Positions 3,471 through 37,449 of a stretch of 48,402 nt of DNA are shown one piece after another. The translations under genes were made by a program, and so were the position numbers. The DNA lies in the NCBI GenBank assembly GCA_016178135.1, contig JACOTW010000003.1, positions 66,472-114,873 on the forward strand, given 5' to 3'. Within the stretch, counting starts at the first letter, position 1. Every line of letters starts with the position of its first letter. Source of the DNA: Candidatus Saccharimonadota bacterium. GTDB lineage: Bacteria > Patescibacteriota > Saccharimonadia > Saccharimonadales > JACOTW01. Below the pieces are notes generated by a model. It worked only from the letters and a program-made list of their open reading frames with translations. It did not search any database and was not told the DNA's origin.

Positions 3471-3613
3471 TATAGCCCCCGCAAAACAAATTCCCGACTT
3501 TTCGAATCACCCTCTTTGGCCCAAAACCGCCTTTCCTCGTTCAACGTATCTAAGGATATGTCTCTCTCGGAAAAGTCAGTTTTTGACTCAAAGATCATTG
3601 CTTCAAAAACCCA
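3471..3613 (+). repeat. Family-A repeat copy 1 (subfamily A1), 3' TIR degenerate
   Basis: Starts TATAGCCCCCGCAAAACAAATTC. It differs at 2 of 143 positions from copy 32195-32361. The match is lost after 3613. Confidence 0.9.
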
Positions 3614-4430
3614 GGATAAATGTTTCACCCTCCTTGAGTGCTCTTTTGATCGCCAGACCGTGTTTTATAACTAAATACACCACCACTGCGCCTATGAATA
3701 GTCCGGCAGCGAAAGTCGTCCATGGGGCTTGTCCGTTGGTGAGTGTTTGGATATGACTTACGGCAATGGTCGCTGATTTATGCATGGGATTTTCAGTGGA
3801 AAGAGCGGAGGGTGATGACGGAGTTGTTGATATTCCTTTTACGCGTGATCCATACATAGCAACGACGACTGTTTCAGGGCCGGTATTTTGGTAGTTACTA
3901 GAATTAGCATAACCAAAACCAACCTCGCTATATGCCGAATCCAGTAAATTAGCACGATGATCCTCGCTGTTCATCCAGCCTGCCACGATGTTGTTGCTGG
4001 TATCAAAGCCGTAAGCTAGATTTTCTCCGGCTTTTTGATATTTGTAGTCGGCTTGCTGTATGAATGCCCAGGGCTCTTGCCCATCCGGCGTAGTATGCGA
4101 CCAGTAATTACGGGCAACCATGTCATTGGCCTTAGCTTGTGCAGCTGCTGTTAATTGATTGTTGATACCAAGGGCTGATTGGTTATTTTGAGTTCGTTGA
4201 TAGTTTGTTGCTACCAGCAAACTATCTTGACTAATATTAGTACTGTAAGCCAGGATACCCTTATTATTCATCGGTGGCTTGAAGTTGCCCAGTAAAACCC
4301 CTACACCAATCACTAAAAGCAAGGGTAGGTATGGCAAATAGACCTTTTTATAGTGATGGCCGTGGTTGTGGTGTAGGCCACGCCGTTTTTTGTCAGTGAT
4401 TGATGTTTTCTTTCGGGTTTTCATAACCAT
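3603..4430 (-). CDS. CAP/SCP (PR-1-like, YkwD-type) domain protein with N-terminal membrane anchor
   Basis: TM helix LPYLPLLLVIGVGVLLG. CAP motifs NYWSHTTPDG, GENLAYGF, AGWMNSEDHRANLL, VGFGYA. The stop codon lies inside family-A copy 1. Confidence 0.8.
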   Translation of the reverse strand: MVMKTRKKTSITDKKRRGLHHNHGHHYKKVYLPYLPLLLVIGVGVLLGNFKPPMNNKGILAYSTNISQDSLLVATNYQRTQNNQSALGINNQLTAAAQAKANDMVARNYWSHTTPDGQEPWAFIQQADYKYQKAGENLAYGFDTSNNIVAGWMNSEDHRANLLDSAYSEVGFGYANSSNYQNTGPETVVVAMYGSRVKGISTTPSSPSALSTENPMHKSATIAVSHIQTLTNGQAPWTTFAAGLFIGAVVVYLVIKHGLAIKRALKEGETFILGF

Positions 4431-4949: not shown

Positions 4950-5029
4950 ATCTTACACGAGTTTGCGACAGGTCCAGCTTAGCTGTTCCGGATAGGGCAA
5001 TGAAAAAGTGCGAACCCCGTGTCTTACTA
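4950..5029. promoter_or_regulatory. Divergent promoter-like region built from an inverted pair of motif C / family-B end
   Basis: Minus strand: CTGGACCTGTCGCAAACTCGTG-TAAGAT-7nt-ATG (trmH-like gene). Plus strand: CAATGAAAAAGTGCGAACCCCGTG followed by a weak -10 upstream of the pilB-like gene. Confidence 0.4.
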
Positions 5030-6663: not shown

Positions 6664-6671
6664 ACGATATA

Positions 6672-6769
6672 CTGGACTTACCCAAAACCCCTCCATCCCC
6701 AGATCGAATTCTATCGGCTACAAACGGTTTTTCTTCTCTCGATGTAGCTAAGGCTACCTCTCCTTCAGA
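6672..6769 (+). repeat. Family-B left half (TIR plus internal segment) fused to family-A copy 2
   Basis: CTGGACTTACCC..CCCCAGATCGAATTCTATCGGCT..CTTCTCTCGATGTAGCTAAGGCTACCTCTCCTTCAGA aligns with 37169-37265. Confidence 0.8.
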
Positions 6770-6909
6770 TATAGCCCCCGCAAAACAAATTAACGGCTTT
6801 TTGAACCGCCCTCTCCGGTCAAAAGCTGTCTTTCCTCATTCACCTTATCTAATGATATGCTTCCCTCGGAAAAGCCAGTTTTTGACTCGAAGATCATCGG
6901 CTCCAAAAC
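6770..6909 (+). repeat. Family-A repeat copy 2 (subfamily A2), lacks 3' TIR
   Basis: Same 5' TIR. It differs at about 5 of 140 positions from copy 8439-8579. Confidence 0.9.
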
Positions 6910-8392: not shown

Positions 8393-8422
8393 CAATGGAG
8401 AGGTGTGAAATTCGTGTAGATA
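8393..8422 (+). promoter_or_regulatory. Motif C plus -10-like hexamer upstream of recG
   Basis: CAATGGAGAGGTGTGAAATTCGTG-TAGATA. A related half site (GTGTGAAAGTCC, 8356-8367, minus strand) faces the malic enzyme gene. Confidence 0.35.
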
Positions 8423-10521
8423 ACAAGACACAGCTAATTATAGCCCCCGCAAAACAAATTCACGGCTTTTTGAACCGCCCTCTTCGGTCAAAAGCTGTTT
8501 TTCCTCACTCACCTTATCTAAGGATATGCTTCCCTCGGAAAAGCCAGTTTTTGACTCGAAGATCATCGGCTCCAAAACCTATTGATCATTATCCTAGACG
8601 TTATGATGATTATTCTAGAATACAACCTATCAATCGCCTAAAACCCGGCACAATAACACTAAAAGCCATTATCAAACAAGCTAAAGGTCATTATGTGCGG
8701 CGTGGAATGCACATTACCGAAGCTGTCGCTAGTGATGATACGGGTAGTGTGCGACTTATTTGGTTTAATCAACCATACAGAGAGAACTCCCTGAAACATA
8801 ACGTTGAATACTATGTTTCGGGTGAGTTTGGACTAAGCCATCAACGGTTAAGTATATTGAATCCTTCCATCGAACTAGTTAGTGATTTTCCGGTAAATAC
8901 GGCCCGAATTGTGCCAATTTACAGGGAAACAAAAGGTCTAAAATCACTTCAGATCAGAAAAACTCTAAAAACTTTATTACCAACTATCCAAAAGTTACCA
9001 GAGACGTTACCGAATTGGTTGATAGAAGAACAGGGCTTAATCGCTCGCGCCGATGCTATACGATCCATACACTTCCCCGAAAATGTTGAAGCTTTGGAGA
9101 GGGCAAAACAGCGTTTAGGTTTTGAGGAGGTGTTCAGTCTTAGCCTCGCCAGCCTTCTAAATAAACATGAGCTAATCAAGGAACATGCCCTGAAAATCCC
9201 TTTTAATGAAAAACTTGCTAAAGATTTTGTGGCGCACTTACCCTTTAAGTTGACTGATGCACAGCGCAAGGTGATTTGGCAAATATATCTAGACCTACAA
9301 AAAGATCAACCGATGAATAGACTTATAGAAGGCGATGTTGGTTCTGGGAAAACAGTAGTAGCAGCTATGGCGGCGGTGATGGTGATTAGTCAGGGTTATC
9401 AAGTTGCATTTATGGCACCAACCGAGTTATTGGCTCGTCAGCATGCCGAAAATATCCACAAACTATTAGTACCATTGGGTATGGCCGATAATTTAAGCCT
9501 ACTGATTGGCAGTATGAAACCAGCTCAAAAGATTGCCGTTTGGCAACGAGTAAAAGATGGAACGATTAGATTTATAATTGGTACACATGCACTTATTCAG
9601 GAAAAAGTAGATATACACAAACTGGGGTTGGTTATCATAGACGAGCAGCATCGTTTTGGCGTGGAACAGCGCAAGGTATTACAAACTAAGGCCGGCCACG
9701 CCGTTCACGTCTTGTCAACAACAGCTACACCAATCCCCCGCAGTTTAGCTCTGACTCTTTACGGTGAACTGGATATCTCAACCATTGATACCAAGCCAAT
9801 TGGGCGCAAGATGATACATACCAAAATTTGCTCGCCGAACTCGCGCGAACAGCTTTATAAAAAGATAGATGGTGAATTAAGTGATGGACGGCAAGTGTTC
9901 GTGGTCTGTCCTACGATATCCGAATCTTATTTGATGCCTGTTAAATCGGCCGAACAAACCTATGAAGAGTTAAGTAAAGGCCCGTTCAAACATCGCAGAG
10001 TCGGCGTACTACATGGCAAGATGAAAGCTGACCAGAGGGATAAAGTCATGAAACAGTTTATTGACCATGAACTGGATATTCTAGTAGCGACTACCGTTAT
10101 AGAGGTGGGTGTGGATGTCCCGAATGCTTCAGTTATGCTGATTGAAAATGCTGAGCGTTTTGGGTTGGCACAGATCCATCAGCTACGCGGTCGAGTTGGC
10201 CGGAGTGATCACCAGGGTTATTGTTATCTAATGATGAGCGATAGCGGGCAACCAGGCCAACGCCTAAAAGCATTAGAAGAGTCGGACGATGGCTTCCGAT
10301 TAGCGGAGCTTGATCTAAAAATTCGTGGACCTGGCGCGATTTATGGCAGCGCACAGCATGGGCAACTTGACCTTAGGATCGCTAAATTAACAGATGTAAA
10401 TCTACTAATAGCTGCTCGTGCTGCCGCCCAAAATTTTATTGATAAAAACGAAAATCTGCTACAATACGAGGAGTTAAATAATCGCATACAAAAACTAAGT
10501 ACTCTAACAAACCTAAATTAG
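8395..10521 (+). CDS. recG: ATP-dependent DNA helicase RecG (start codon uncertain: ATG 8395, TTG 8470 or TTG 8551)
   Basis: Wedge/OB region (VRLIWFNQPY). Helicase motifs GDVGSGKTVVA, DEQHRFGV, TATPIPR, QLRGRVGR. Confidence 0.85.
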   Translation: MERCEIRVDNKTQLIIAPAKQIHGFLNRPLRSKAVFPHSPYLRICFPRKSQFLTRRSSAPKPIDHYPRRYDDYSRIQPINRLKPGTITLKAIIKQAKGHYVRRGMHITEAVASDDTGSVRLIWFNQPYRENSLKHNVEYYVSGEFGLSHQRLSILNPSIELVSDFPVNTARIVPIYRETKGLKSLQIRKTLKTLLPTIQKLPETLPNWLIEEQGLIARADAIRSIHFPENVEALERAKQRLGFEEVFSLSLASLLNKHELIKEHALKIPFNEKLAKDFVAHLPFKLTDAQRKVIWQIYLDLQKDQPMNRLIEGDVGSGKTVVAAMAAVMVISQGYQVAFMAPTELLARQHAENIHKLLVPLGMADNLSLLIGSMKPAQKIAVWQRVKDGTIRFIIGTHALIQEKVDIHKLGLVIIDEQHRFGVEQRKVLQTKAGHAVHVLSTTATPIPRSLALTLYGELDISTIDTKPIGRKMIHTKICSPNSREQLYKKIDGELSDGRQVFVVCPTISESYLMPVKSAEQTYEELSKGPFKHRRVGVLHGKMKADQRDKVMKQFIDHELDILVATTVIEVGVDVPNASVMLIENAERFGLAQIHQLRGRVGRSDHQGYCYLMMSDSGQPGQRLKALEESDDGFRLAELDLKIRGPGAIYGSAQHGQLDLRIAKLTDVNLLIAARAAAQNFIDKNENLLQYEELNNRIQKLSTLTNLN
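8439..8579 (+). repeat. Family-A repeat copy 3 (subfamily A2), lies inside the recG 5' reading frame
   Basis: Same 5' TIR, no 3' TIR. It is translated in frame in ORF 8395..10521. Confidence 0.9.
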
Positions 10522-11944: not shown

Positions 11945-12262
11945 ATGAGCTTAACTAAAGATGACCTAGCTGCGATTAAGGATATTGTTGAAGGTGCTAA
12001 TGAAGATTTAAGAATCGATGTTGCCACCGGTTTTGCTGAAGTACACGACAAGTTTGCCGAAATACATGACAAGTTTGCTGAAGTACACGACAAGTTTGCC
12101 GAAGTACATGACAAGATTGATCATGTAGCCAAAGAACTATCAGCTCAAATTGATTCAGTTGATGATAAATTAACAGTTAGAGATGGGAAATTAGAAGATA
12201 CTGTTCGGCGAGTTGATGAGCTTCAAATATCTATTGCAAAGCTTACACATCGAACAGTCTAG
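11945..12262 (+). CDS. Small coiled-coil protein with four tandem heptads (FAEVHDK)
   Basis: ATG 11945 lies just after the rsmD stop. The sequence has heptad periodicity throughout. No homolog recognised. Confidence 0.5.
   Translation: MSLTKDDLAAIKDIVEGANEDLRIDVATGFAEVHDKFAEIHDKFAEVHDKFAEVHDKIDHVAKELSAQIDSVDDKLTVRDGKLEDTVRRVDELQISIAKLTHRTV
12032..12115 (+). repeat. Tandem repeat, 21 nt x 4 (effectively 42 nt x 2), in frame
   Basis: TTTGCTGAAGTACACGACAAG / TTTGCCGAAATACATGACAAG / TTTGCTGAAGTACACGACAAG / TTTGCCGAAGTACATGACAAG. Confidence 0.95.
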
Positions 12263-12352
12263 GACTCCATCTGTTACAATAATTAGTTAGTACGCGAATG
12301 TGAAATAAGTATATGCGCGTACCGTAACGCAGTTCTATATATAGACATACAT

Positions 12353-12389
12353 GGGGATGTGGTGGAATGGTAGACACGCTAGTTTTAGG
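12353..12389 (+). pseudogene. Duplicated 5' half of tRNA-Leu (acceptor 5' strand to anticodon-loop position 37), no 3' half
   Basis: The 37 nt are identical to 12527-12563, or 39 nt counting the preceding AT. No CATCCCC acceptor partner occurs before 12600. Confidence 0.85.
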
Positions 12390-12526
12390 TGAGGGCTGCC
12401 GGTGGCAGCCTGCAAGGGAGTCAACTCTTGCAAACTGGTTTGCAAAGATGTTGCGACGGGGCCGCGGAACGTGGCCTAGTGCCCTAGCCGAAAGGCTTGC
12501 AGTAAGCTAAAATACTACAGCGTAAT

Positions 12527-12610
12527 GGGGATGTGGTGGAATGGTAGACACGCTAGTTTTAGGAACTAGTGCCGCAAGGCGTGAAGGTTCAAGTCCTTTC
12601 ATCCCCACCA
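12527..12610 (+). tRNA. tRNA-Leu (anticodon UAG), class II with long variable arm, encoded CCA
   Basis: Hand fold: acceptor GGGGATG/CATCCCC, anticodon stem CTAGT/ACTAG with loop TTTAGGA, variable arm GCC-gcaa-GGC, T arm GAAGG-TTCAAGT-CCTTT, discriminator A, then CCA. Confidence 0.9.
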
Positions 12611-12616
12611 AATCGA

Positions 12617-12666
12617 GACTAAAGTCAGAATTGTCGCCCAAAAAGACGACAATTCTGACTTTAGTC
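12617..12666. repeat. Perfect 20-bp-stem palindrome 7 nt after tRNA-Leu
   Basis: GACTAAAGTCAGAATTGTCG-cccaaaaaga-CGACAATTCTGACTTTAGTC. No T-tract follows. The GAATTGTCGC core resembles the family-B TIR. Confidence 0.9.
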
Positions 12667-12672
12667 AATTCT

Positions 12673-12799
12673 TGGTGAGTTTTTACGCCCACGCTAGAAC
12701 CCATTTTAGCACCAAATGCGAGAAATGAGATTTTCGGCGGGTCGCCCCCGACCCGACCCGCCGAACTGCTCCGCAGGGTTTTTGGCTGAAAAGATTTTG
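12673..12799. repeat. Left arm of 127-bp inverted repeat (IR127)
   Basis: Reverse complement of 14780-14906 with one mismatch. Contains the GC hairpin CGGCGGGTCG-n9-CGACCCGCCG. Confidence 0.95.
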
Positions 12800-12824
12800 G
12801 CTGTTTTTATGGTAAAATGTACCT

Positions 12825-13757
12825 ATGAAAATCGTTGTAACCAACCCCTCAGGCTTAACCGACAATCAAATACAAGAATTAAAGCAACTTGGCGAAGTCG
12901 CCGTTTATAACGATACGAATAACGACAATTACGCAGAGCGAGTAAAAGACGCAGAAATTGCTGTTCTTGATTGTTTTTTGACACCAGTTACAAGCGAACT
13001 TTTAGCAAAAACGCCAGACTTAAAGTTTTTCTCTATAAACTCAACTGGTTTTGATAAAGTTGATGTAGAAGCCACAAAAAATGCTGGTGTTATTGCGTCA
13101 AATGTTCCGCATTTTTCTACCAATTCTGTTGCTGAAATGGCCATCGGTTTAATGTTTGCCGCCAACCGCAAAATCGCCCTTGGCGATAAAGAGTTTAGAA
13201 ACGGACTAATTGCGGTTGATCCTGGAACACCAGAACAAACCAGATATTCCGGTTTTGACTTAATCGGCAAAACACTTGGTGTTGTTGGTCTTGGCGACAT
13301 TGGCAGTCGCATTGCCGAAATCGGCAATGGAATTGGTATGTCTGTGATTGCCTATAACCGAACAGAAAAAGACCTGCCAAATGTTAAACAGGTATCTCTA
13401 CAAGAACTTTTTGAGAAAGCAGATGTAGTCGTTTTGGCTCTCGCCTTAAACGACCAAACCAAAGGTATTATCACAAAAGAACTCATAGAAAATATGAAAA
13501 AATCTGCGATTTTTGTGAGCATTGCTGGTCTTGGCTTGATTGACCAAGACGCACTCAAAAACGTATTAAACAATGATTTAATTGCTGGCACTGGAATTGA
13601 CACCGCAAGCCAAGACTGGGCAGAAGTTAAAAATGCCGTTTTAACTCCGCACAATGGCTACAATACTCGTGAGTCAGACGAAAATATGGGTCGTATAATC
13701 ACAGAAAACATTAAAGCCTACATTGACGGCAAACCAATAAATAGGATAGACTCATGA
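12825..13757 (+). CDS. D-isomer-specific 2-hydroxyacid dehydrogenase family protein
   Basis: NAD-binding motif GKTLGVVGLGDIGSRIA. The C-terminal region is typical of the family (LTPHNGYNT). Confidence 0.85.
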   Translation: MKIVVTNPSGLTDNQIQELKQLGEVAVYNDTNNDNYAERVKDAEIAVLDCFLTPVTSELLAKTPDLKFFSINSTGFDKVDVEATKNAGVIASNVPHFSTNSVAEMAIGLMFAANRKIALGDKEFRNGLIAVDPGTPEQTRYSGFDLIGKTLGVVGLGDIGSRIAEIGNGIGMSVIAYNRTEKDLPNVKQVSLQELFEKADVVVLALALNDQTKGIITKELIENMKKSAIFVSIAGLGLIDQDALKNVLNNDLIAGTGIDTASQDWAEVKNAVLTPHNGYNTRESDENMGRIITENIKAYIDGKPINRIDS

Positions 13758-14740
13758 AAAATTTTGCGATTCTTGGTGGTGGAATATCAGGGATAACGGT
13801 TGGTAATATTTTGCTTGATATGTTTCCTGATTCAAAAGTCACAATATATGCACAGGAAACCAGAGATATTGTTAGTTACGTTGCCAGTGCTCAGTTTTAT
13901 CCAATTTGGTTAGGAGATAATCTACCAGAGAATTATGAATTAACCCTCAAGCGATGGTTCTTGAAATCGAAGGAAGAGTTCATCAAGCGGCGTGACGATG
14001 TTAATTATGGGATAGCGACTTACCGCAATCATGAATTGTTTAAGGAAGCGGAAGAGCCACCTGCTTACTTTAGAGATGTTCTTTCCAATTTTGAAGCATT
14101 AGAAGATCACAACTTACCTGCTGGTTACAAGTACAGATTTTCTTTTGACACAATGATTATTGACACCTGGGTGTATATTCCCCAACTTACCAAGGACTTT
14201 TTGAATAGGGGGGGGCAGATTGTCCAACGAGAGTTTAAGTCTATAGCAGAAGTTATAGACTTAGATGAACCGGTTATCTTCAATTGTCTAGGTATGGGCG
14301 CTAAGCCAATATTTGGCGACGAGTATCTAAAGCCCGTTAAGGGTGTCGTCTTAAGACTAAAACCAGTTAATATTGGCGACGTTGTGGTATCAACAGGAGA
14401 TTTTATAGTCGCTCAAAGAAGTCAAGATTTATATTTAGGGGCTTCCTACGACGAGAACTGGGAGACAGCCGACCCTACCCAACAAGAGGAAGAGTATTTG
14501 TTTGATAATGTGAAGGAAATCATGGAAACACCAGGTAGTATTTTTTCTATACCTCAAGGTACTCTACGCAAAGAAAATATTATTGAACGTATGGTGGGCT
14601 TTAGGCCAGTGAGGAGTATCGGGCCTAGAGTCGAAAAGGAAACCTTAGGAGATAAAACAATCATTCACAACTATGGGCACGGTGGCAACGGTATCATCTT
14701 ATCCTGGGGAACTGCCCACGAAGCACTATCCTTATTGTAG
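13754..14740 (+). CDS. FAD-dependent oxidoreductase, D-amino-acid-oxidase (DAO) family
   Basis: N-terminal FAILGGGISGITVG (GxGxxG) and C-terminal FRPVR...HNYGHGGNGIILSWGTA signature. ATGA overlap with the upstream gene. Confidence 0.8.
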   Translation: MKNFAILGGGISGITVGNILLDMFPDSKVTIYAQETRDIVSYVASAQFYPIWLGDNLPENYELTLKRWFLKSKEEFIKRRDDVNYGIATYRNHELFKEAEEPPAYFRDVLSNFEALEDHNLPAGYKYRFSFDTMIIDTWVYIPQLTKDFLNRGGQIVQREFKSIAEVIDLDEPVIFNCLGMGAKPIFGDEYLKPVKGVVLRLKPVNIGDVVVSTGDFIVAQRSQDLYLGASYDENWETADPTQQEEEYLFDNVKEIMETPGSIFSIPQGTLRKENIIERMVGFRPVRSIGPRVEKETLGDKTIIHNYGHGGNGIILSWGTAHEALSLL

Positions 14741-14779
14741 TGCTACCGGTAGTAGCACAAAAGCCAACCTTAAACTCCT

Positions 14780-14906
14780 CAAAATCTTTTCAGCCAAAAA
14801 CCCTGCGGAGCAGTTCGGCGGGTCGGGTCGGGGGCGACCCGCCGAAAATCTCATTTCTCACATTTGGTGCTAAAATGGGTTCTAGCGTGGGCGTAAAAAC
14901 TCACCA
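14780..14906. repeat. Right arm of IR127
   Basis: See 12673-12799. Confidence 0.95.
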
Positions 14907-14980
14907 GAAAAATTTTTGGGAGTTTATCTTTTAGTCACCAGGGGTAAGGATGCTCATATTGCTCCTACACCAAGCCAAGG

Positions 14981-15147
14981 TATAGTCCCCGCAAAACAAA
15001 TTCGTGGGTTTTTGAAGCAATGATCTTTGAGCCAAAAACTGACTTTTCCGAGAGATACATATCCTTAGATACGTTGAACGAGGAAAGGCGGTTTTGGGCA
15101 AAAGAGGGTGCTTCGAAAAGTCGGGAATTTGTTTTGCGGGGGCTATA
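14981..15147 (-). repeat. Family-A repeat copy 4 (A1), complete, 167 bp
   Basis: Both TIRs are present. It differs at 4 of 167 positions from copy 32195-32361. Confidence 0.95.
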
Positions 15148-15196
15148 TCTTTGGTTTTTGTTGTGGTCGCTTTCTTTAGTAGCTGATGCAAAGATG

Positions 15197-21188: not shown

Positions 21189-23948
21189 ATGAATAAAAAA
21201 GTCCGGAGGCTGTATAAACAATTCCAGCCCAGCCATTATGTGTTGGATTTAATACCTGACCCCGAAAATATGGTATTTAGCGGGTCAGTTACGGTTAGTG
21301 GTCAAAAAACCGGTCGGCCCAGTCAGCGCCTAACCTTTCATCAAAACGGACTAAAGATTACCCGCGCTCATATAACAAGACATGACAAAAAAGGCGACTA
21401 TGAACTGGATATTGACCGCATCAATAACCATAACAGCTTCAATGAAGTTCGTATTCATACCAAAGCAATGGCGTATCCAGGTAAATACACGGTACGGCTT
21501 GAGTTTGAGGGTAAAATCACGCGTTCGATGAACGGCATATACCCCTGTTATTTTGAGTACAAGGGCAAGAAAAAACAGCTCATAGCCACTCAATTTGAAA
21601 GTCATCATGCGCGCGAAGCTTTTCCGTGTATCGATGAGCCCGAAGCCAAAGCCACCTTTCAACTATCTTTAACGCATACAGCGAGCGAAACGGTTTTATC
21701 TAATACCCCCATAAAACAATCAAAAGTCATAAAGTTGAAAGTAAAAAGTCGAACAATCACAAAACATTCAACCACTTTTGAGACTACTCCGCGCATGTCA
21801 ACCTATCTGTTAGCCTTCGTAATTGGTAGTCTGGATTTCAGAGAAAGTAAAGCCAACAATGGCGCAATTGTACGAGCTTATGCTACACCTAACAACGTTC
21901 AGTTTACCAATTTCGCGTTAGATGTCGCGGTAAAATGCCTGGATTTTTTTAATGACTACTTTGGCATTGAATATCCTTTAGAAAAATGTGATCTAATTGC
22001 CCTGCCAGATTTTGCCAGTGGCGCCATGGAAAACTGGGGTTGTATCACATTTCGCGAACAGACACTCTTGGTTGATCCAAAAAATTCAACGCTTGGCAAT
22101 AAACAATATGTGGCCATGGTAATCGCCCACGAACTAGCCCACCAGTGGTTTGGCAACCTTGTAACCATGCGTTGGTGGACCGATCTTTGGCTTAATGAAG
22201 GTTTTGCCAGTTGGATTGAATATTTGGCGGTCGATCATCTTTTTCCTGAATGGAAAATGTGGATTCAATTTATTGTGGACGAACAGCAGCAGGCACTCAA
22301 ACTTGATGCGCTGGAAAATACTCACCCAGTCGAAGTACCAGTTAATCATCCAGACGAAATTCGTACAATTTTTGACACTATTAGCTATAGCAAAGGAGCC
22401 AGCGTTATTCACATGCTGCATCAATTCTTGGGCCCAGAGGTTTTTCGGGATGGGCTGCGCCACTACCTGGTCACGCACGCCTATGGCAATACCGATACCG
22501 TTGACCTTTGGACGGCACTGGAAAAAGTATCCCATAAGCCAGTAAAAGAATTTATGCAAGCATGGACGTCTACTCCTGGTTTTCCACTCATTCACGCCGA
22601 TTTTAAAAACAATAGCACCATGCACGTAGAGCAAGAGCGTTTCATACTAAATCCCGCTCATAGTCCAGTACCAGAAAGCTTATGGCCAGCGGCATTATTA
22701 CCAGATAAACTACTTACAACCAAAGATGCAACCTACCAAATTGATGTCGCCAAACTGGACCTCCGCACAACCCCTAGTTTTCAACTTGAATCAGCTCGAG
22801 CGAAAATTGTTTTATCTGAAGGAGAGGTAGACTTAGCTACATCGACAGAAGATAAGCTGTTTGTACCCGAGACTATTCAATCTGGTAATGAGCGAGTTTT
22901 GCGTGAGCCTAGTAAGCTCAATCACGAACAAGGTGGTTTCTACAGAACTATCTATAACACATCGCACCTAGAATATCTGGGCAAACAAATTCTTAGGGGC
23001 AAACTATCACCACAAGACAGATTGGGTTTGTTAAGTGACGTTTTTGAGACCGCCAAGGCGGGTAAGTCCAGCACAGCTGTAGCGCTAAAATTCCTGACTA
23101 ACTTTCAATACGAAGACAATTATGCCGTCTGGGACGTTATGGCCGGAGCTTTAGGCAATATTAGACTGATTATGGACGATTCTAATCTGCGGGAGGATAT
23201 GAAGCCGTTTATTCGCAAGCTTATTTCCTTAGAACTTAAACGTGTTGGTTGGGATCGTCAGCCACACGAATCGTACTTTGATCGCATGCTAAGGCCGACT
23301 ATTTTGAGTCTGGCATCGGCTGCCGATGAGGATAGTATTATCAAACGCTGCCAAAAATTATTCGCATCTATCGACTATACAGAAGATAGTACTTCCGGCC
23401 TCAAGACGACGGCTAGACAGAAAGTTGCTATTGATCCGGACTTGCGTGGAATAGTCTTTGGTACAGTTGCCAGGCTGGGCGGCAAAATTGAGTTTAATAA
23501 ACTTCTAATGATATATAAAGCCTCGACGCTAAGCGAGGAACGCACAATACTTGCCGCGGCTCTAACTAGTTTCAAACAACCTGAAATTATCAAACAAGCC
23601 CTTGCTAAAATTGACTCAAACGATGTGCGCCTACAAGATGTTTCATACTGGATAGCCTATAGTTTGCTCAATCACCATGCCCGCAAAATAACTTGGCAAT
23701 GGCTAAAAGACAACTGGTCATGGCTAGAGGAAAATATAGGCACCGATCTTAGCTTTTCGCGCCTGCCTATTTACGTAGCTCGAGTTTTTAGCGATGAAGC
23801 TTTTATTGATAATTATAAAGAGTTCTTCGAACAAAGACTCACACCGGTAATTGAGCGCAGTTACAAACAAGGTCTGGAAATGCTTGAATGGCAAGCCGCC
23901 TGGAAAAAACGCGACCTCAAAGAAATTAAAGCCTTTTTCGATCACTAA
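21189..23948 (+). CDS. pepN: Aminopeptidase N (M1 family)
   Basis: GAMENWG exopeptidase motif, HELAHQWFGNLVT...WLNEGFA zinc site, C-terminal ERAP1-like domain. Confidence 0.92.
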   Translation: MNKKVRRLYKQFQPSHYVLDLIPDPENMVFSGSVTVSGQKTGRPSQRLTFHQNGLKITRAHITRHDKKGDYELDIDRINNHNSFNEVRIHTKAMAYPGKYTVRLEFEGKITRSMNGIYPCYFEYKGKKKQLIATQFESHHAREAFPCIDEPEAKATFQLSLTHTASETVLSNTPIKQSKVIKLKVKSRTITKHSTTFETTPRMSTYLLAFVIGSLDFRESKANNGAIVRAYATPNNVQFTNFALDVAVKCLDFFNDYFGIEYPLEKCDLIALPDFASGAMENWGCITFREQTLLVDPKNSTLGNKQYVAMVIAHELAHQWFGNLVTMRWWTDLWLNEGFASWIEYLAVDHLFPEWKMWIQFIVDEQQQALKLDALENTHPVEVPVNHPDEIRTIFDTISYSKGASVIHMLHQFLGPEVFRDGLRHYLVTHAYGNTDTVDLWTALEKVSHKPVKEFMQAWTSTPGFPLIHADFKNNSTMHVEQERFILNPAHSPVPESLWPAALLPDKLLTTKDATYQIDVAKLDLRTTPSFQLESARAKIVLSEGEVDLATSTEDKLFVPETIQSGNERVLREPSKLNHEQGGFYRTIYNTSHLEYLGKQILRGKLSPQDRLGLLSDVFETAKAGKSSTAVALKFLTNFQYEDNYAVWDVMAGALGNIRLIMDDSNLREDMKPFIRKLISLELKRVGWDRQPHESYFDRMLRPTILSLASAADEDSIIKRCQKLFASIDYTEDSTSGLKTTARQKVAIDPDLRGIVFGTVARLGGKIEFNKLLMIYKASTLSEERTILAAALTSFKQPEIIKQALAKIDSNDVRLQDVSYWIAYSLLNHHARKITWQWLKDNWSWLEENIGTDLSFSRLPIYVARVFSDEAFIDNYKEFFEQRLTPVIERSYKQGLEMLEWQAAWKKRDLKEIKAFFDH
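22755..22912 (-). mobile_element. Family-B element embedded in frame in pepN (codons about 523-575)
   Basis: Its right 101 nt (22812-22912) match the reverse complement of 6672-6769 at about 78%; the left ~57 nt match other family-B right ends more loosely. Both degenerate ends are present (CTGGACCT... / ...GAGCCTAG). Confidence 0.8.
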
Positions 23949-24866: not shown

Positions 24867-24929
24867 CTATTGGATTCACGCTAAATCACTCACCCCCAGA
24901 CCAAATCAGCTTGAGCAAAAAGAATTTCA

Positions 24930-24987
24930 CTGGACCTGTCGCAAAATCGTCCGTTCCCAGAGTGAATTATCTCGAGCGAAAACTGTT
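24930..24987 (+). repeat. Family-B end, variant 2; left arm of a 58-bp perfect inverted repeat
   Basis: CTGGACCTGTCGCAAAATCGTCCGTTCCCAGAGTGAATTATCTCGAGCGAAAACTGTT is the exact reverse complement of 26246-26303. Confidence 0.95.
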
Positions 24988-24988
24988 C

Positions 24989-25155
24989 TATAGTCCCCGC
25001 AAAACAAATTCGTGGGTTTTTGAAGCAATGATCTTTGAGTCAAAAACTGACTTTTCCGAGAGAGACATATCCTTAGATACGTTGAACGAGGAAAGGCAGT
25101 TTTGGGCCAAAGAGGGTGATTCGAAAAGTCGGGAATTTGTTTTGCGGGGGCTATA
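24989..25155 (-). repeat. Family-A repeat copy 5 (A1), complete, 167 bp
   Basis: Both TIRs are present. It differs at 3 of 167 positions from copy 32195-32361. Confidence 0.95.
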
Positions 25156-25208
25156 TCTGAAGGATAGGTACATCGAGAGAAGAAAAACTGTTTGTAGCCG
25201 GATTGGAG
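25156..25208 (-). repeat. Family-B internal fragment adjoining family-A copy 5
   Basis: The reverse complement reads ..CGGCTACAAACAGTTTTTCTTCTCTCGATGTACCTATCCTTCAGA. It joins family A at the same point as at 6769/6770. Confidence 0.75.
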
Positions 25209-25238
25209 CAATGACTAAGTGCAAAACTCGTGTAAACT
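25209..25238 (+). promoter_or_regulatory. Motif C plus TAAACT, 6 nt before ATG 25245
   Basis: CAATGACTAAGTGCAAAACTCGTG-TAAACT-aaaaat-ATG. Confidence 0.4.
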
Positions 25239-25244
25239 AAAAAT

Positions 25245-26210
25245 ATGCAGAAAAAACGCACTGGTTCGTTAATAGCCAGTTTTGTGATTGTGGCGGTATT
25301 TTTGGGCGGTGTATGGCAGCGTCAGGTGGTTTTTGATTGGTTCAGGTTGCGTAATTACACCCCATCGGCTGAAATTATCGCATTGGGCGATCGTACCACA
25401 ATGAGTAACAACACGCGCCGTTTATTTTATGTCTATCACCCGGAATTAAACGATAAAGCAACATTTAATGATCATTGCACAGGTGGCGAACAAACCATTG
25501 TTCTGGGCTGCTATATACATAATCGAGGCATATACATCTACAATGTTACCGATGTTCGGCTTAATGGTATTTTAGAAGTTACAGCAGCACACGAAACATT
25601 GCACGCCACTTACGATCGCCTAAGCAGTAGCGAACGGCAACGCATTGACGGTTTTTTGAATCAAGCTTTTGCTGGCATAAAAGATGAACGTATCCTAAAA
25701 ACGATTGAATCATATCGCAAAAATGGCGCTGACATAGTTAATGAATTACATTCAATTCTAGGTACTGAAGTTCGGAATTTGTCACCAGAACTCGAAAATT
25801 ATTACAAACAATATTTTAATGATCGGTCTAAAATCGTAGCTTATTCTGAACAATATGAACAGGCGTTTACTGAACGTAAAACCAAGGTAGAAGATTACGA
25901 CAAGCAACTTGCTAACTTAAAACAGCAAGCTGAAGCTAATCAAAGTTCACTTAATATCCAGGTTAATGCTCTGAATACCGAAAAGCAACAACTGGATCGC
26001 TTATTGGCACAAAAGCAATACGACGCCTACAACCAGGCCGTACCTGATTACAACATAAAAATAAAAGACTACAACGCCCTAGTTAATCAAACAAAAGCAC
26101 TGATTACTCAATATAATTTCTTAGTTGAGGCTCGTAACGCTTTAGCGCTGGAAGAAAACCAACTATACAAAGCAATCGACAGCCGCCCCAACACACTCCA
26201 GATTCAGTAA
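25245..26210 (+). CDS. Hypothetical membrane-anchored protein with HExxH motif and C-terminal coiled coil
   Basis: N-terminal TM helix LIASFVIVAVFLGGVW, AAHETLHATYD, and a Q/N/K-rich heptad C-terminus. No family recognised. Confidence 0.65.
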   Translation: MQKKRTGSLIASFVIVAVFLGGVWQRQVVFDWFRLRNYTPSAEIIALGDRTTMSNNTRRLFYVYHPELNDKATFNDHCTGGEQTIVLGCYIHNRGIYIYNVTDVRLNGILEVTAAHETLHATYDRLSSSERQRIDGFLNQAFAGIKDERILKTIESYRKNGADIVNELHSILGTEVRNLSPELENYYKQYFNDRSKIVAYSEQYEQAFTERKTKVEDYDKQLANLKQQAEANQSSLNIQVNALNTEKQQLDRLLAQKQYDAYNQAVPDYNIKIKDYNALVNQTKALITQYNFLVEARNALALEENQLYKAIDSRPNTLQIQ

Positions 26211-26245
26211 CCCAAAATCCACAGATTGAATCAGTTCGAGCGAAA

Positions 26246-26303
26246 AACAGTTTTCGCTCGAGATAATTCACTCTGGGAACGGACGATTTTGCGACAGGTC
26301 CAG
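26246..26303 (-). repeat. Family-B end, variant 2; right arm of the 58-bp perfect inverted repeat
   Basis: See 24930-24987. It is preceded by the local palindrome TTCGAGCGAAAA-acag-TTTTCGCTCGAG. Confidence 0.95.
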
Positions 26304-26328
26304 TCTAGTAGATGCTACACTTGGTATT

Positions 26329-27672: not shown

Positions 27673-27735
27673 CAATCATAAGTTTAGAGTAAATCCGGTA
27701 AAGCTAGCTATAACCTATGTTGAGCGAGTAGTAGA

Positions 27736-27813
27736 CTGGACTTGTCGCAAAGCTCCCCCATCCTCAACTCGAGCTGATTTGGCTAAGAACGGGCGATTTT
27801 GCGACAGGTGCAG
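27736..27813 (+). mobile_element. Family-B miniature derivative (78 bp) with 4-bp direct duplication TAGA
   Basis: Both TIRs are present, and the internal region is deleted relative to 37169-37328. TAGA occurs at 27732-27735 and 27814-27817. Confidence 0.8.
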
Positions 27814-27818
27814 TAGAA

Positions 27819-27847
27819 TTGACAATTATAGTGTTTGTCGGTAAGCT
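27819..27847 (+). promoter_or_regulatory. nusA promoter candidate (TTGACA-17-TAAGCT)
   Basis: Canonical -35 at the correct spacing from a weak -10. Confidence 0.3.
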
Positions 27848-29104: not shown

Positions 29105-29131
29105 CTGGCACTCTTGACCTGTGAGTGCTAA
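29105..29131. promoter_or_regulatory. CIRCE-like inverted repeat overlapping the clpC promoter
   Basis: CTGGCACTC-ttgacctgt-GAGTGCTAA versus consensus TTAGCACTC-N9-GAGTGCTAA. TTGACC in the spacer lies 16 nt before TATTAT (29136-29141). Confidence 0.6.
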
Positions 29132-31669: not shown

Positions 31670-31670
31670 A

Positions 31671-31726
31671 CTGGAATTGTCGCAAAATCGCCCGTTCCCA
31701 GAGTGAATTATCTCGAGCGAAAACTG
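31671..31726 (+). repeat. Family-B end, variant 2 (solo half)
   Basis: CTGGAATTGTCGCAAAATCGCCCGTTCCCAGAGTGAATTATCTCGAGCGAAAACTG, close to 24930-24985. Confidence 0.85.
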
Positions 31727-31745: not shown

Positions 31746-32036
31746 TTAGAAAAAGAAAAAGGGTGGTGAAACTAGGCCTTTGAGTAGCCAGGTTCCTAAC
31801 GCCACTCCCAAAGTGTCAAAAACAATATCTGATAAGGAATTGTTGATAGATTCATAGCCAAAAACTATATTTACCTTGGCTAGTAATGGCGATAATACGA
31901 AGATTTCCAGCGGTTCCCATAATACTAGTAGGCTTAGGGCTATAAAGGGTGGCATGATCCAGCCAGCAACTATCCCTGAACTAAAATGAATAATACTCCA
32001 GACATCGAATAGTTTGCCGTTACGTTTTCCGTGCAT
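31746..32036 (-). CDS. Hypothetical small membrane protein (3 predicted TM helices)
   Basis: Hydrophobic segments. Preceded by motif C, TAATAT and a 6-nt spacer. Confidence 0.55.
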   Translation of the reverse strand: MHGKRNGKLFDVWSIIHFSSGIVAGWIMPPFIALSLLVLWEPLEIFVLSPLLAKVNIVFGYESINNSLSDIVFDTLGVALGTWLLKGLVSPPFFFF

Positions 32037-32042
32037 ATGCTT

Positions 32043-32072
32043 ATATTACACGAGTTTCGCGCTTTTCCATTG
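32043..32072 (-). promoter_or_regulatory. Motif C plus TAATAT, 6 nt before ATG 32036
   Basis: Minus strand: CAATGGAAAAGCGCGAAACTCGTG-TAATAT-aagcat-ATG. Confidence 0.45.
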
Positions 32073-32194
32073 TGCCTTGGTCACACCTGAACGGCTGCAA
32101 ACCGTCTATCTCGTGTCAGGCACGAGTTTCGGACTTAGCCGTCGATGCCAGGTTGCACCAAACCGAGCGAAAATAGTTTTATCTGGCGGAGAGA

Positions 32195-32361
32195 TATAGC
32201 CCCCGCAAAACAAATTCCCGACTTTTCGAATCACCCTCTTTGGCCCAAAACCGCCTTTCCTCGTTCAACGTATCTAAGGATATGTCTCTCTCAGAAAAGT
32301 CAGTTTTTGGCTCAAAGATCATTGCTTCAAAAACCCACGAATTTGTTTTGCGGGGACTATA
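32195..32361 (+). repeat. Family-A repeat copy 6 (A1), complete, 167 bp
   Basis: TATAGCCCCCGCAAAACAAATTC ... GAATTTGTTTTGCGGGGACTATA. Confidence 0.95.
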
Positions 32362-32409
32362 CCTATTATGTAGGGGTTAGCCGAAGTTGATGATACAATT
32401 TAATTAACT

Positions 32410-33717
32410 ATGACATTATCTACTCAACCATACAAAGGGGCACGAGATTTTTATCCGGAAGACAAACGTATACAGAAGTATATGTTTGGTGTTATGCGAA
32501 ATGTGGCGGAGCGATTTGGTTACGAAGAATATGACGCGCCGATATTGGAACCGTTGGAGATTTTTACCGCTAAAACCAGCGATGAAATTGTTGGAGAACA
32601 GACCTACTCATTTGAGGATCGTGGTGGACGAAAGGTTGTCATTCGACCGGAAATGACCCCTTCAGTTTCGCGTATGGTGGCCGGCAGGCGTCAGGAGCTT
32701 ACTTACCCACTTAGGTGGTATTCTATTCCGAATCTATGGCGTTATGAACGCCCCCAGCGGGGAAGATTACGAGAACACTGGCAACTTAATGTTGATTTAT
32801 TTGGCATAGATGGAATCGAGGCCGAACATGAAATATTGTTGGTAGCTGATGGCATTATGCAGGCTTTGGGTGCCACTAAAGATATGTATACCATCAAATT
32901 GAATAGCCGTAAGCTAATGAATGGTTTAATGCGTGATTATTTACAGCTAGATGAAGCCCAAGCCCATAAACTTAGTAGGCTAATTGATCGAATGCACAAA
33001 ACAGATCACGCCGAATTTGTCGACCAAGTTGGTGCCATTTTTACGCCCAACCAACACGAAAAAGGCTTGGACAAGGCATTATTAAGCTTGTTAAAAACTT
33101 CGAATTGGGATGAGGTGTCGCTTGATGCCTCAAGCAGTGAAGCACTCAAAAAGATTAAACAATTAATAAATATGTTAGAGACTTCTGGTATTACTAATGT
33201 GGTTTTTGACCCGACTATCATGAGGGGATTTGACTACTATACCGACGTAGTTTTTGAAGTTTTTGATAATAATCCGAAGAATAATCGTTCAATGTTTGGC
33301 GGTGGTCGTTATGATGGACTGGTAGGCCTATTTGGCGTGAAGCCCGTTCCAACGATTGGTTTCGGTATGGGCGATGTAACATTGCAGAATTTTCTAGAGG
33401 ATCACGGTTTAATACCAGAACCAAATACAGAAACAGACATTTACGCGGTGTTGATAGGTGATGTTTATGATAGAGCGCAGAACGCAATTTCTTCATTGCG
33501 TGGCCTAGGGATTAACGTAACGGTTGATAGCACGGGGCGCAAGCCGGAAAAACAAATCAGAGTTGCCTTAAAAAAACAGGTTAATTATGTGTTGTTTATA
33601 GGCGAGTCAGAGCTTAATGATGGGCGATTTACGCTTAAAAACCTTTATTCCGGCGAAGAAGCGCGTTATGATATCCAAAAGATCGCAAGTATTGTCAAAG
33701 ATTATAAAAAGACCTGA
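32410..33717 (+). CDS. hisS: Histidine--tRNA ligase
   Basis: Class II motifs (GARDFYP, RPEMT, WYSIPNLWRYERPQRGR, GGGRYD) and an anticodon-binding domain. Confidence 0.92.
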   Translation: MTLSTQPYKGARDFYPEDKRIQKYMFGVMRNVAERFGYEEYDAPILEPLEIFTAKTSDEIVGEQTYSFEDRGGRKVVIRPEMTPSVSRMVAGRRQELTYPLRWYSIPNLWRYERPQRGRLREHWQLNVDLFGIDGIEAEHEILLVADGIMQALGATKDMYTIKLNSRKLMNGLMRDYLQLDEAQAHKLSRLIDRMHKTDHAEFVDQVGAIFTPNQHEKGLDKALLSLLKTSNWDEVSLDASSSEALKKIKQLINMLETSGITNVVFDPTIMRGFDYYTDVVFEVFDNNPKNNRSMFGGGRYDGLVGLFGVKPVPTIGFGMGDVTLQNFLEDHGLIPEPNTETDIYAVLIGDVYDRAQNAISSLRGLGINVTVDSTGRKPEKQIRVALKKQVNYVLFIGESELNDGRFTLKNLYSGEEARYDIQKIASIVKDYKKT

Positions 33718-35516: not shown

Positions 35517-35543
35517 TTGGCACTCTTGACCTTGGAGTGCTAT
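35517..35543. promoter_or_regulatory. CIRCE-like inverted repeat overlapping the clpP promoter
   Basis: TTGGCACTC-ttgaccttg-GAGTGCTAT. The right arm runs into TATAAT (35541-35546). Confidence 0.6.
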
Positions 35544-36147: not shown

Positions 36148-36163
36148 GCTTGTGTCAAGTTAA

Positions 36164-36322
36164 CTGGACCTGTCGCAAAATCCTCCATCTCCAGACCAAT
36201 TCATCTCGGCTGATAGCGGTCTGTCTTCTCTCGATGTAGCTACGGCTACCTCTCCTTCAGATAAACCACTCTCAACTCCAGCTGATTTAGCCTGGGAACG
36301 GGCGATTTTGCGACAGGTCCAG
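36164..36322 (+). mobile_element. Family-B element, complete (159 bp), flanked by TTAA/TTAA
   Basis: TIR CTGGACCTGTCGCAAAATC / GATTTTGCGACAGGTCCAG. TTAA occurs at 36160-36163 and 36323-36326. Confidence 0.85.
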
Positions 36323-36368
36323 TTAAACTGCTTGTGTTTATGCGAGTTGGTTATGCTATCTTGTATTT

Positions 36369-37127: not shown

Positions 37128-37168
37128 CTGGTTTTATTAAATAGCTCTTGTGGAATATAATATATTTA

Positions 37169-37328
37169 CTGGACCCGTCGCAAAGCTCCCCCATCCCCAG
37201 ACCAATTCATCTCGGCTGGTAGCGGTCTGTCTTCTCTCGATGTAGCTAAGGCTACCTCTCCTTCAGCCAAACCACTCCCAACTCCAGCTGATTTGCCCTG
37301 GGAACGGGCGATTTTGCGACAGGTCCAG
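37169..37328 (+). mobile_element. Family-B element, complete (160 bp), flanked by TTTA/TTTA
   Basis: About 92% identical to 36164-36322. TTTA occurs at 37165-37168 and 37329-37332. Confidence 0.85.
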
Positions 37329-37449
37329 TTTATACTTGACGGCACTAAATAAACTGTATATCCTGTATAGTTAAGAAGTAGTGTACGATCAGTCGTTGTT
37401 TCTATTTTTTTAAAAATAGAATAACAGAAGATGTGACGTAGGGATCTTC

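Follow-up and report, generated by a model that had tools for sequence, protein, structure and literature searches.

The window, by which we mean the whole 48,402-nt stretch of DNA analyzed here, harbors six copies of a repeat designated family A, three of them complete (Table 1). When the 23-nt terminal sequence TATAGCCCCCGCAAAACAAATTC was searched against the window at ≤3 mismatches, nine matches were obtained, compared to 0.00 expected from dinucleotide shuffles. These were located at both ends of the copies at 14981-15147, 24989-25155, and 32195-32361, and at a single end of those beginning at 3471, 6770, and 8439. Each complete copy measures 167 bp and carries a 23-bp terminal inverted repeat with one mismatch. 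A covariance model, R1, returned from the window exactly the six copies of family A plus three copies of a related family, B. An earlier sequence-only reading of the same DNA had reported six copies, three of them complete at 167 bp, and the same inverted repeat with its single mismatch, all of which was borne out by the end matches and by R1. The copy that it had placed at 3471 is likewise present, with its homology extending to 3616 rather than 3613.

The copies fall into two subfamilies. Those of A1 differ at 2-5 positions, which preserves the small spread noted earlier but widens the range from the 2-4 then given. The two A2 copies are 96% identical to one another and 80-83% identical to A1, a closer relationship than the "roughly three-quarters" of the initial estimate. 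The family-A element proper is 163 bp, with the inverted repeat beginning at TAG and the outer TA representing the target duplication; its ends are inverted repeats of 21-23 bp having the form TAG(C/T)CCCCGCAAAACAAATT. The element is non-coding, being crossed by open reading frames only through accidents of frame, and no protein family is involved. Its length (under ~300 bp), its lack of coding capacity, and its terminal inverted repeats are all those of a MITE.

All family-A copies are intergenic or at gene ends. The copy at 14981-15147, flanked as ...AAGG TA [element] TA TCTTTGG, lies between two genes on the + strand, the downstream one encoding ribosomal protein L19. The minus strand of the copy at 32195-32361 corresponds in sense to the left end and the transposase gene of the parent insertion sequence (IS) described below.

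Table 1. Positions of family-A and family-B elements in the window, with the score of covariance model R1 or the locus comparison supporting each.
Feature	Position	Strand	Evidence
A1 copy without left inverted repeat	3471..3616	- (better-folding orientation)	locus comparison with L106, L105
A2 copy without left inverted repeat, in family-B element	6770..6909	-	locus comparison with L101, L100
A2 copy without left inverted repeat	8439..8579	-	locus comparison with L100, L101
Complete A1 copy	14981..15147	+	R1 183.3 bits
Diverged family-B copy, paralogous empty site for family-A insertion	22754..22914	+	R1 24.3 bits
Complete A1 copy in TA within family-B MITE	24989..25155	+	R1 188.5 bits
Complete A1 copy (TA + 163 bp + TA)	32195..32361	- (better-folding strand)	R1 186.7 bits
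Family-B MITE	36162..36326	-	R1 67.1 bits, minus strand only
Family-B MITE, second complete copy	37168..37330	-	R1 66.1 bits

Family B, whose inverted repeat is ACTGGACCTGTCGCAAAAT, is a relative of family A in both structure and sequence, the apical hairpin being homologous, and is at the same time a target of family-A insertion. The site filled by the copy at 24989 reads GTTC-TA-[A1]-TA-TCTGAAGGATAGG, compared to GTTT-TA-TCTGAAGGAGAGG in the uninterrupted family-B paralogues at 22754-22914 and 36162-36326. The filled and empty paralogous sites differ by the element and one TA, which constitutes a clean TA duplication. The 6770 copy occupies the same TA of another family-B copy, and the 32195 copy, which sits in the remnant of a family-B element, lies at a family-B TA eleven bases further on. 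The sequence TA|TCT adjoins the right inverted repeat in four of the six family-A copies.

Related genomes were also examined. At the 6770 locus of GCA_040960765.1 (L100), the family-B element is intact and carries no A2 copy, with the surrounding family-B sequence also differing, and another Saccharibacteria MAG (L004) has, at a locus unrelated to these, a copy 96-97% identical to those in the window. In a sister contig from Logan (L106), the left end of the element at the 3471 locus separates the final sense codon of a gene encoding a CAP-domain protein from its stop codon. The TAG of the inverted repeat itself supplies a new stop there, and the insertion therefore leaves the protein unchanged; the contig ends ~28 nt into the element. 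Look-ups with the exact proteins of the flanking genes found no orthologous empty site for the three complete copies, since related contigs break at repeats or the protein had no record; short-read contigs were seen to break at family-A copies.

We then sought the ends of family A in other genomes. A scan with an exact 22-mer, covering one genome per GTDB species, gave 14 matching stretches, all 14 from Patescibacteria MAGs and assigned to Saccharibacteria, Kuenenbacteria, CPR3, and Minisyncoccia. A 21-mer scan of metagenome contigs gave another 76 stretches. Pairing of the ends led to ~45 elements of 1082-1140 bp in Patescibacteria genomes and metagenomes, which have the form TA|TAG(C/T)CCCCGCAAAACAAAT...|TA. 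Flanking TA was found on both sides of every one of these elements and of all but two of the MITE-sized elements. Other short elements bearing the same inverted repeat had lengths of 82, 151, 161, 163, and 192 bp. No matches were found when viral contigs were scanned with the inverted repeat, or when metagenomes were scanned with the internal A1/A2 pattern CAGTTTTTGRCTCRAAGATCAT.

Two open reading frames from the 1.1-kb elements, encoding 342 and 348 residues, were tested against protein family models. They matched the NCBIfam model for IS630 family transposases (NF033545) at 202 and 186 bits, compared to a cutoff of 100, and also matched the Pfam models DDE_3 and HTH_29/32/33, the latter being N-terminal HTH or winged-helix domains. 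A tblastn search with one of these transposases detected homologues in four more 1.1-kb elements. A TA target is a property of the IS630 family, and the parent elements combine this target with the DDE_3 and HTH domains and the ~1.1-1.2 kb length of that family. The longer element with the same inverted repeats and a transposase for which the sequence-only reading had advised a search thus exists, in many Patescibacteria contigs. The short element is homologous to the parent over the terminal 35-52 nt at each end. The central ~70-90 nt of the MITE had no blastn match among the fetched loci carrying 1.1-kb elements, and the palindrome found between the ends of the short element is absent from the parents. 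Family A had been noted to start uniformly with TATAG, and from this it had been argued that a TA or TATA duplication could not be separated from the inverted repeat; the flanks of the 1.1-kb elements and the empty family-B site now assign the outer TA to the target duplication.

Within the window itself no transposase was detected by tblastn with the family transposase (best E = 1.9), in keeping with the earlier statement that none is present. The single IS-sized candidate, an open reading frame of 321 residues at 25245-26210, was rejected as a hidden transposase since its product had no similarity to the IS630 transposase and only sub-threshold Pfam matches. The protein combines a hydrophobic segment at its N terminus with an HExxH motif and a coiled coil, and is encoded between two perfectly complementary 59-nt family-B arms. 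The IS-sized unit at 24929-26304 turned out to enclose a membrane-anchored HExxH/coiled-coil protein and no transposase. A relationship to the cyanobacterial MITE Nezha, suggested by GC content, was also dropped, as every match in the genome scan was to Patescibacteria. On these sequence comparisons, family A has those defining features of an IS630-partnered MITE that were tested, including an inverted repeat common to an autonomous, transposase-encoding element; the partner was seen in other genomes.

Each complete copy of family A can be folded as one full-length hairpin, that is, an imperfect palindrome. The predicted RNA fold of the 32195 copy reached -84.1 kcal/mol for the minus strand and -57.7 kcal/mol for the plus strand, with z scores against shuffled sequences of -11.5 and -8.0, respectively. 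The same fold was found in the diverged relatives L039 (70-72% identical to A1), L086, L006, and L056, and in the complete A2 copy present in L100. L056 was detected by the model only, and both it and family B were left out of model building. The lineages align over their whole length at 68-83% identity, with the apical hairpin conserved. The full-length hairpin is kept across six diverged lineages and in the second family, B, in the window.

A test for covariation, as had been recommended from the sequence, was made on an alignment of eight complete members with a consensus of 64 pairs. Paired cells made up 92.1% of the consensus compared to 83.8% in shuffles, and 28 pairs were changed on both sides compared to 12.0±2.3 in shuffles, none of the 500 shuffles reaching 28. 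When the partners were slid by 1-3 columns as a control, 6-11 double-changed pairs were obtained. The compensatory double substitutions previously noted between A1 and A2 are real, and in the wider alignment one full-length hairpin explains them better than the separate hairpins then proposed. Four changes between A1 and A2 fall in and opposite the second of those hairpins, which pairs only two of the four, while the long hairpin accounts for them as two compensated pairs. The first and second helices represent local alternatives, with pairing maintained in 78-83% of cells, and form the minimum-energy fold only in the weaker strand with DNA parameters. The third, TATC-taag-GATA, is the apex of the full-length hairpin. 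The further suggestion that the hairpins are recognized as DNA gained nothing from our results, as we found no indication of such recognition.

Searches of Rfam (Rfam 15) at gathering thresholds identified only a tRNA in the whole window, and the region 32150-32410 had no match at E values up to 1, so that the Rfam check that had been proposed returned no known family. A scan of 31900-32500, covering the one copy at 32195-32361, gave no promoter-like or terminator-like sites inside the element.

The two strands of the element are not equally stable when folded. In A1, A2, L039, L086, L006, L056, and two family-B copies the same strand was more stable by 10-32 kcal/mol, and in every lineage the better-folding strand was the one having the sense of the IS left end. 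The difference arises from the mismatches, which on the better-folding strand are G·U instead of A·C. To count these we aligned each element to its own reverse complement in a strand-neutral manner, scoring G·T and A·C. For A1, the better and the other strand had values of -84 and -58 kcal/mol, with a G·T : A·C ratio of 8:2. The corresponding values were -89.5 and -79.2 kcal/mol (4:3) for A2, -85.6 and -64.8 kcal/mol (8:5) for L039, -88.8 and -68.2 kcal/mol (9:3) for L086, -82.2 and -56.3 kcal/mol (8:1) for L006, and -66.8 and -40.4 kcal/mol (6:3) for L056. The family-B copy at 36162 gave -93.6 and -71.7 kcal/mol (8:4), and that at ~37168 gave -99.8 and -68.0 kcal/mol (7:1). The wobble positions mostly differ among lineages, and the asymmetry was also obtained with DNA parameters (-45.2 versus -31.9 kcal/mol).

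This strand bias, which is based on 7-8 related lineages, points to selection on one single strand, either RNA or ssDNA; mutational asymmetry in master copies could also be its source. Copies occur in both orientations, some of them antisense to flanking genes. Where the flanking genes are in tandem, the better-folding strand was sense to them in one case and antisense in four. No consistent rule of orientation emerged relative to flanking genes or to replication.

The three copies lacking the 3' terminal inverted repeat had been noted as such without their origin being recognized. We compared these loci with those of near-identical genomes, obtained through exact-protein look-ups and having flanks 99.7-100% identical to the window. 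The alleles came from GCA_040960765.1 (L100), GCA_016196105.1 (L101 and L105), and the Logan contig (L106). Judged from the sister alleles, the three truncated copies appear to be secondary deletions. At the 8439 locus, L100 retains a complete 167-bp A2 element (L100 2220-2386). Relative to the L100 allele, 79 nt are absent from L101 and 162 nt from the window, the two deletions sharing their inner boundary. The deletion in the window removed the left inverted repeat and 136 nt of flank, including ~33 N-terminal codons of recG. The L101 copy at the 6770 locus is truncated too, but the window has lost a further 103 nt on the deleted side; here as well the inner boundary is shared. At the 3471 locus, L106 has the intact end of the CAP-domain gene followed by the A1 left end with its TA; ~103 nt of this are missing in the window and ~124 nt in GCA_016196105.1. 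The window has here lost the left inverted repeat and ~77 nt (~25 C-terminal codons) of the CAP-domain gene, whose stop codon (3603-3605) is now inside the element.

The left inverted repeat was lost in every deletion, along with flanking DNA of variable length. The inner end lies in the G-run at element positions 24-28, which is the junction of the inverted-repeat stem and the inner hairpin. Most deletion junctions have 2-5 nt of microhomology, with little or none at the 8439 junction of the window, and the three deleted copies share the same orientation relative to the fork direction inferred from GC skew. These features suggest that the deletions arose by slippage or end-joining anchored at the hairpin base. 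An assembly artefact is an unlikely cause of the truncations, as the sequence shared at a junction is 2-5 nt at most and not a k-mer, and independent assemblies carry different alleles.

The above results make it very probable that the 167-bp repeat is a non-coding MITE moved by an IS630-type transposase known from CPR bacteria. Under this explanation, the transposase would bind both inverted repeats, cut the element out, and paste it into a TA. Insertion would have occurred repeatedly into the same TA of the second MITE family, with the right flank often reading TA|TCT. The source of the transposase would be elsewhere in the genome, or would have been there in the recent past, since the A1 copies differ at only 2-5 positions. 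As the window holds no transposase bearing these ends, mobilization in the Saccharimonadota host is something that we infer. Within the family the hairpin would be kept by selection, and not persist as a leftover, with selection acting on one particular strand. The likeliest reason may be that the element is transcribed within neighboring mRNAs, on which its hairpin has an effect, as is the case for ERIC, Correia, and bcr1 elements, and a role of the hairpin as ssDNA in transposition or replication is conceivable. The hairpin would also destabilize its locus, as deletions starting from the base of the inner hairpin would take the left inverted repeat and adjacent host DNA, and a copy without the left inverted repeat could presumably no longer move.

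The sequence-only reading had offered either a MITE or a structured RNA, and had held that sequence alone does not decide between them. The IS630 partner and the TA duplication now support the former, and a role for the covarying, strand-biased hairpin as a single strand, RNA or ssDNA, may still accompany it. A free-standing, multicopy gene for a structured RNA, with no mobile element, would account for the strong conserved structure and its covariation, yet we consider it extremely improbable. The inverted repeat is common to transposase-bearing IS630 elements and the insertions duplicate TA; Rfam gave no match at E up to 1, and the one copy scanned has no internal promoter-like or terminator-like site. 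In addition, copies lie in both orientations, some of them antisense to flanking genes, they have inserted into another repeat and at the terminus of a coding region, and their states vary between near-identical genomes. A further proposal, which is an extension of the MITE explanation and not a replacement for it, is that the host has adopted the element as a strand-specific RNA module. Read-through transcription would yield a ~75-bp hairpin that is cut by RNase III or blocks a 3' exonuclease, and so sets mRNA levels. Covariation of the full hairpin, the bias toward G·U over A·C on the same strand in all lineages, and the placement of all copies between genes or at gene ends are consistent with such a role, for which there are precedents in Correia elements (PMC10969869), ERIC and bcr1 (PMC3184786), and RUP and BOX (PMC3049150). 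However, the strong strand is antisense in four of five tandem-gene contexts, and G·T wobbles stabilize DNA hairpins as well, the asymmetry holding with DNA parameters. A simple role in mRNA is also at odds with the lack of a promoter-like or terminator-like site in the one copy scanned. We regard adoption by the host as possible but doubtful.

The hairpin might instead act as ssDNA, in that folding at the time of replication would join the inverted repeats, aid assembly of the transposase, or mark the element, and the bias would reflect the exposed strand. The asymmetry obtained with DNA energy parameters is what this predicts, and the deletions resemble replication slippage at the hairpin base in their fixed inner end, their microhomology at most junctions, and their shared orientation relative to the GC-skew-inferred fork direction. 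Against this, the parent 1.1-kb elements have no such palindrome and copies occur in both orientations relative to skew. IS630 and Tc1/mariner transposases, moreover, act on double-stranded ends, and we know of no hairpin requirement for them. A function as ssDNA therefore seems quite unlikely. Finally, the palindrome could be functionless, having been formed by fold-back of one IS end in each lineage, with strand-biased transitions in a few master copies, the covariation then reflecting rebirth of the palindrome or conversion between its arms. The sampling of just 7-8 related lineages, the small bias of A2 (4:3; -89.5 versus -79.2 kcal/mol), the lack of an orientation rule relative to genes, and the fact that related sequences can exceed shuffle controls leave some room for this, and we give it a modest chance of being correct. 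It does not readily explain why every lineage is biased in the same direction though the G·U positions mostly differ, or why the slid-partner control, which keeps relatedness, gave 6-11 double-changed pairs rather than 28. Alignment over the whole length at 68-83% identity and the conserved apical hairpin also speak for descent and not independent births.

As a kind of element, the MITE described here is ordinary; the parts that merit further study are the strand-biased, covarying hairpin and the repeated loss of one end by deletion. In the literature searched, we found no descriptions of MITEs in Patescibacteria, and, as far as searched, this is the first; it links a CPR-wide IS630 lineage to its non-autonomous derivatives. 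Gene callers put spurious small open reading frames on such repeats and short-read assemblies break there, and recognition of the family should help in annotating and scaffolding CPR genomes. A hairpin that both covaries and has a G·U bias on one strand offers a means of testing the hairpins of bacterial MITEs for their importance as RNA. Should raw reads bear them out, the series of alleles at the three loci would represent deletions anchored at MITEs that encroach on host genes in very small genomes. A broader and more speculative reading, which we think unlikely but worth stating, is that families A and B belong to one old CPR MITE superfamily with a hairpin selected as a single strand, whose inner hairpin repeatedly triggers polar deletions of one inverted repeat and up to ~140 nt of host DNA, including coding sequence such as the start of recG and the end of the CAP-domain gene. 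Were this so, MITEs would actively generate micro-deletions and remodel gene ends in streamlined genomes, and "solo-end" copies would be their immobilized, possibly domesticated, products.

Several known elements resemble family A. The Correia elements differ from it in that we know of no partner transposase for them, and the IS630 partner family of family A has been identified. The two are alike in size class, inverted repeats, TA ends, and a long hairpin. Correia elements (CREE/NEMIS) of Neisseria are 100-155 bp, with inverted repeats of ~26 bp and TA at both ends, and their transcripts form long hairpins, which RNase III cleaves where the inverted repeats pair (PMC10969869, PMC3184786). They also possess promoter and IHF sites, whereas the one family-A copy scanned showed no promoter-like site.

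ERIC/IRU of Enterobacteriaceae and bcr1 of the Bacillus cereus group are imperfect palindromes of ~127-155 bp; ERIC-type elements have TA at both termini and affect mRNA in an orientation-dependent manner, and in bcr1 compensatory changes keep the RNA structure (PMC3184786). They are unrelated to family A in sequence and host, and effects on RNA that are experimental for them are inferred here. The cyanobacterial MITE Nezha has inverted and direct repeats common to ISNpu3 and a very stable hairpin (PMC3184786). Nezha and family A were identified alike, by an inverted repeat matching an IS in other genomes, by filled and empty sites, and by a stable hairpin. Nezha differs in its inverted repeat and its host, and has orthologous empty sites between species (PMC3184786), whereas family A has only a paralogous empty site and differences in locus state between sister genomes.

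The Repeat Unit of Pneumococcus (RUP, 107 bp), found in Streptococcus pneumoniae with IS630-Spn1, is likewise small, non-coding, intergenic, and multicopy, with IS630-like inverted repeats (PMC3049150, PMC3184786). RUP is thought to be moved in trans, and a tight fold is predicted for its transcript, in which the two inverted repeats pair with each other (PMC3049150, PMC3184786); RUP and BOX elements are co-transcribed (PMC3049150). Family A similarly has its inverted repeats paired in a tight predicted fold and would likewise be moved in trans. It differs from RUP in its Patescibacteria host, its greater length (163 bp), and in having no sequence similarity to any Rfam-curated repeat. Its deep covarying sub-lineages, G·U strand bias, one-sided deletions, and insertion at a fixed TA of a second MITE family are absent from the features reported for RUP (PMC3049150, PMC3184786).

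Besides family A, the MITE with IS630-type inverted repeats, the window contains a second MITE family, B, of ~163 bp, bounded by the inverted repeat ACTGGACCTGTCGCAAAAT...ATTTTGCGACAGGTCCAGT. The apical hairpin TAGC-nnTA-GCTACATYGAG is common to families A and B, as is the strand bias, by which one strand of the full-length hairpin folds better, and family B is the preferred landing site of family-A insertions. No partner transposase was identified for family B.

Coordinates of MITE-related features (window positions unless an L-numbered contig from another genome or metagenome is named)
Feature	Location
Family-B copies	36162-36326, 37168-37330, 22754-22914
Family-B short form	27735-27821
Family-B partial copies	4958-4985, 6671-6769, 24929-24987, 26246-26304, 31670-31726, 32153-32194
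MITE-crossing ORFs	14931-15191(-), 24911-25240(+), 24927-25211(-), 32145-32390(+); L094 288-485
Short IS630-ended elements	L035 1-86, L065 2184-2269, L088 2765-2850
Short IS630-ended elements	L013 815-888, L064 1919-1992
Short IS630-ended element	L080 34-188
Short IS630-ended element	L030 1-196

The 59-nt family-B arms at 24929-24987 and 26246-26304 are 100% complementary to one another, and together they enclose a copy of the A1 subfamily and a gene (25245-26210) whose 321-aa product combines an HExxH motif and a coiled coil with a hydrophobic stretch at the N terminus. At 1376 nt, the unit spanning 24929-26304 is IS-sized, yet it carries no transposase. Inversion, conversion, or the capture of a gene between half-elements are possible origins.

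A 2.3-kb segment (12611-14901), holding genes for a D-2-hydroxyacid dehydrogenase and an FAD-dependent oxidoreductase, lies immediately downstream of a tRNA gene (12527-12607) and is flanked by a 127-nt inverted repeat whose arms, 12673-12799 and 14780-14906, are 99% complementary. The segment is absent from GCA_040960765.1 (contig L094), in which the equivalent of window position 12610 is fused directly to that of 14902. The tRNA gene's 5' portion is present twice, with 39 nt exactly shared between 12351-12389 and 12525-12563, and the extra copy, 174 nt upstream of the gene, may have been left behind by an integration event at the tRNA.

MITE-adjacent deletions, in which the left inverted repeat and host flank were lost, have altered two proteins in the window alleles. 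RecG (8395-10521) lacks the conserved N-terminal segment ...LTEVKGVGEELAKKFAVLGIRTV..., its ORF now passing through the MITE, and the CAP-domain protein (3603-4430) is missing a hydrophobic helix at its C terminus, where the final residues are now encoded by the MITE. MITE copies are also crossed by ORFs of 65-109 aa, which are probably spurious. At least one of these, the 65-aa ORF of L094, is a called gene in a public assembly; it had no match in Pfam.

Two other repeats were observed in the window. At 12032-12136, inside an ORF, a 21-nt unit (TTTGCYGAARTACAYGACAAG) is repeated in tandem approximately four and a half times, with a 7-aa protein repeat as the predicted product. The 25-nt palindromic motif TGGCACTCTTGACCTGTGAGTGCTA occurs twice (29106-29130 and 35518-35542), each time directly downstream of a plus-strand gene, and may be a shared terminator or binding site.

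Further short elements, of 74-196 bp, have IS630-type ends as in family A and differing interiors. The same ends bounding different interiors indicate, therefore, that the parent IS lineage, the ~1.1-kb IS630-family elements of Patescibacteria, spawned MITEs several times.
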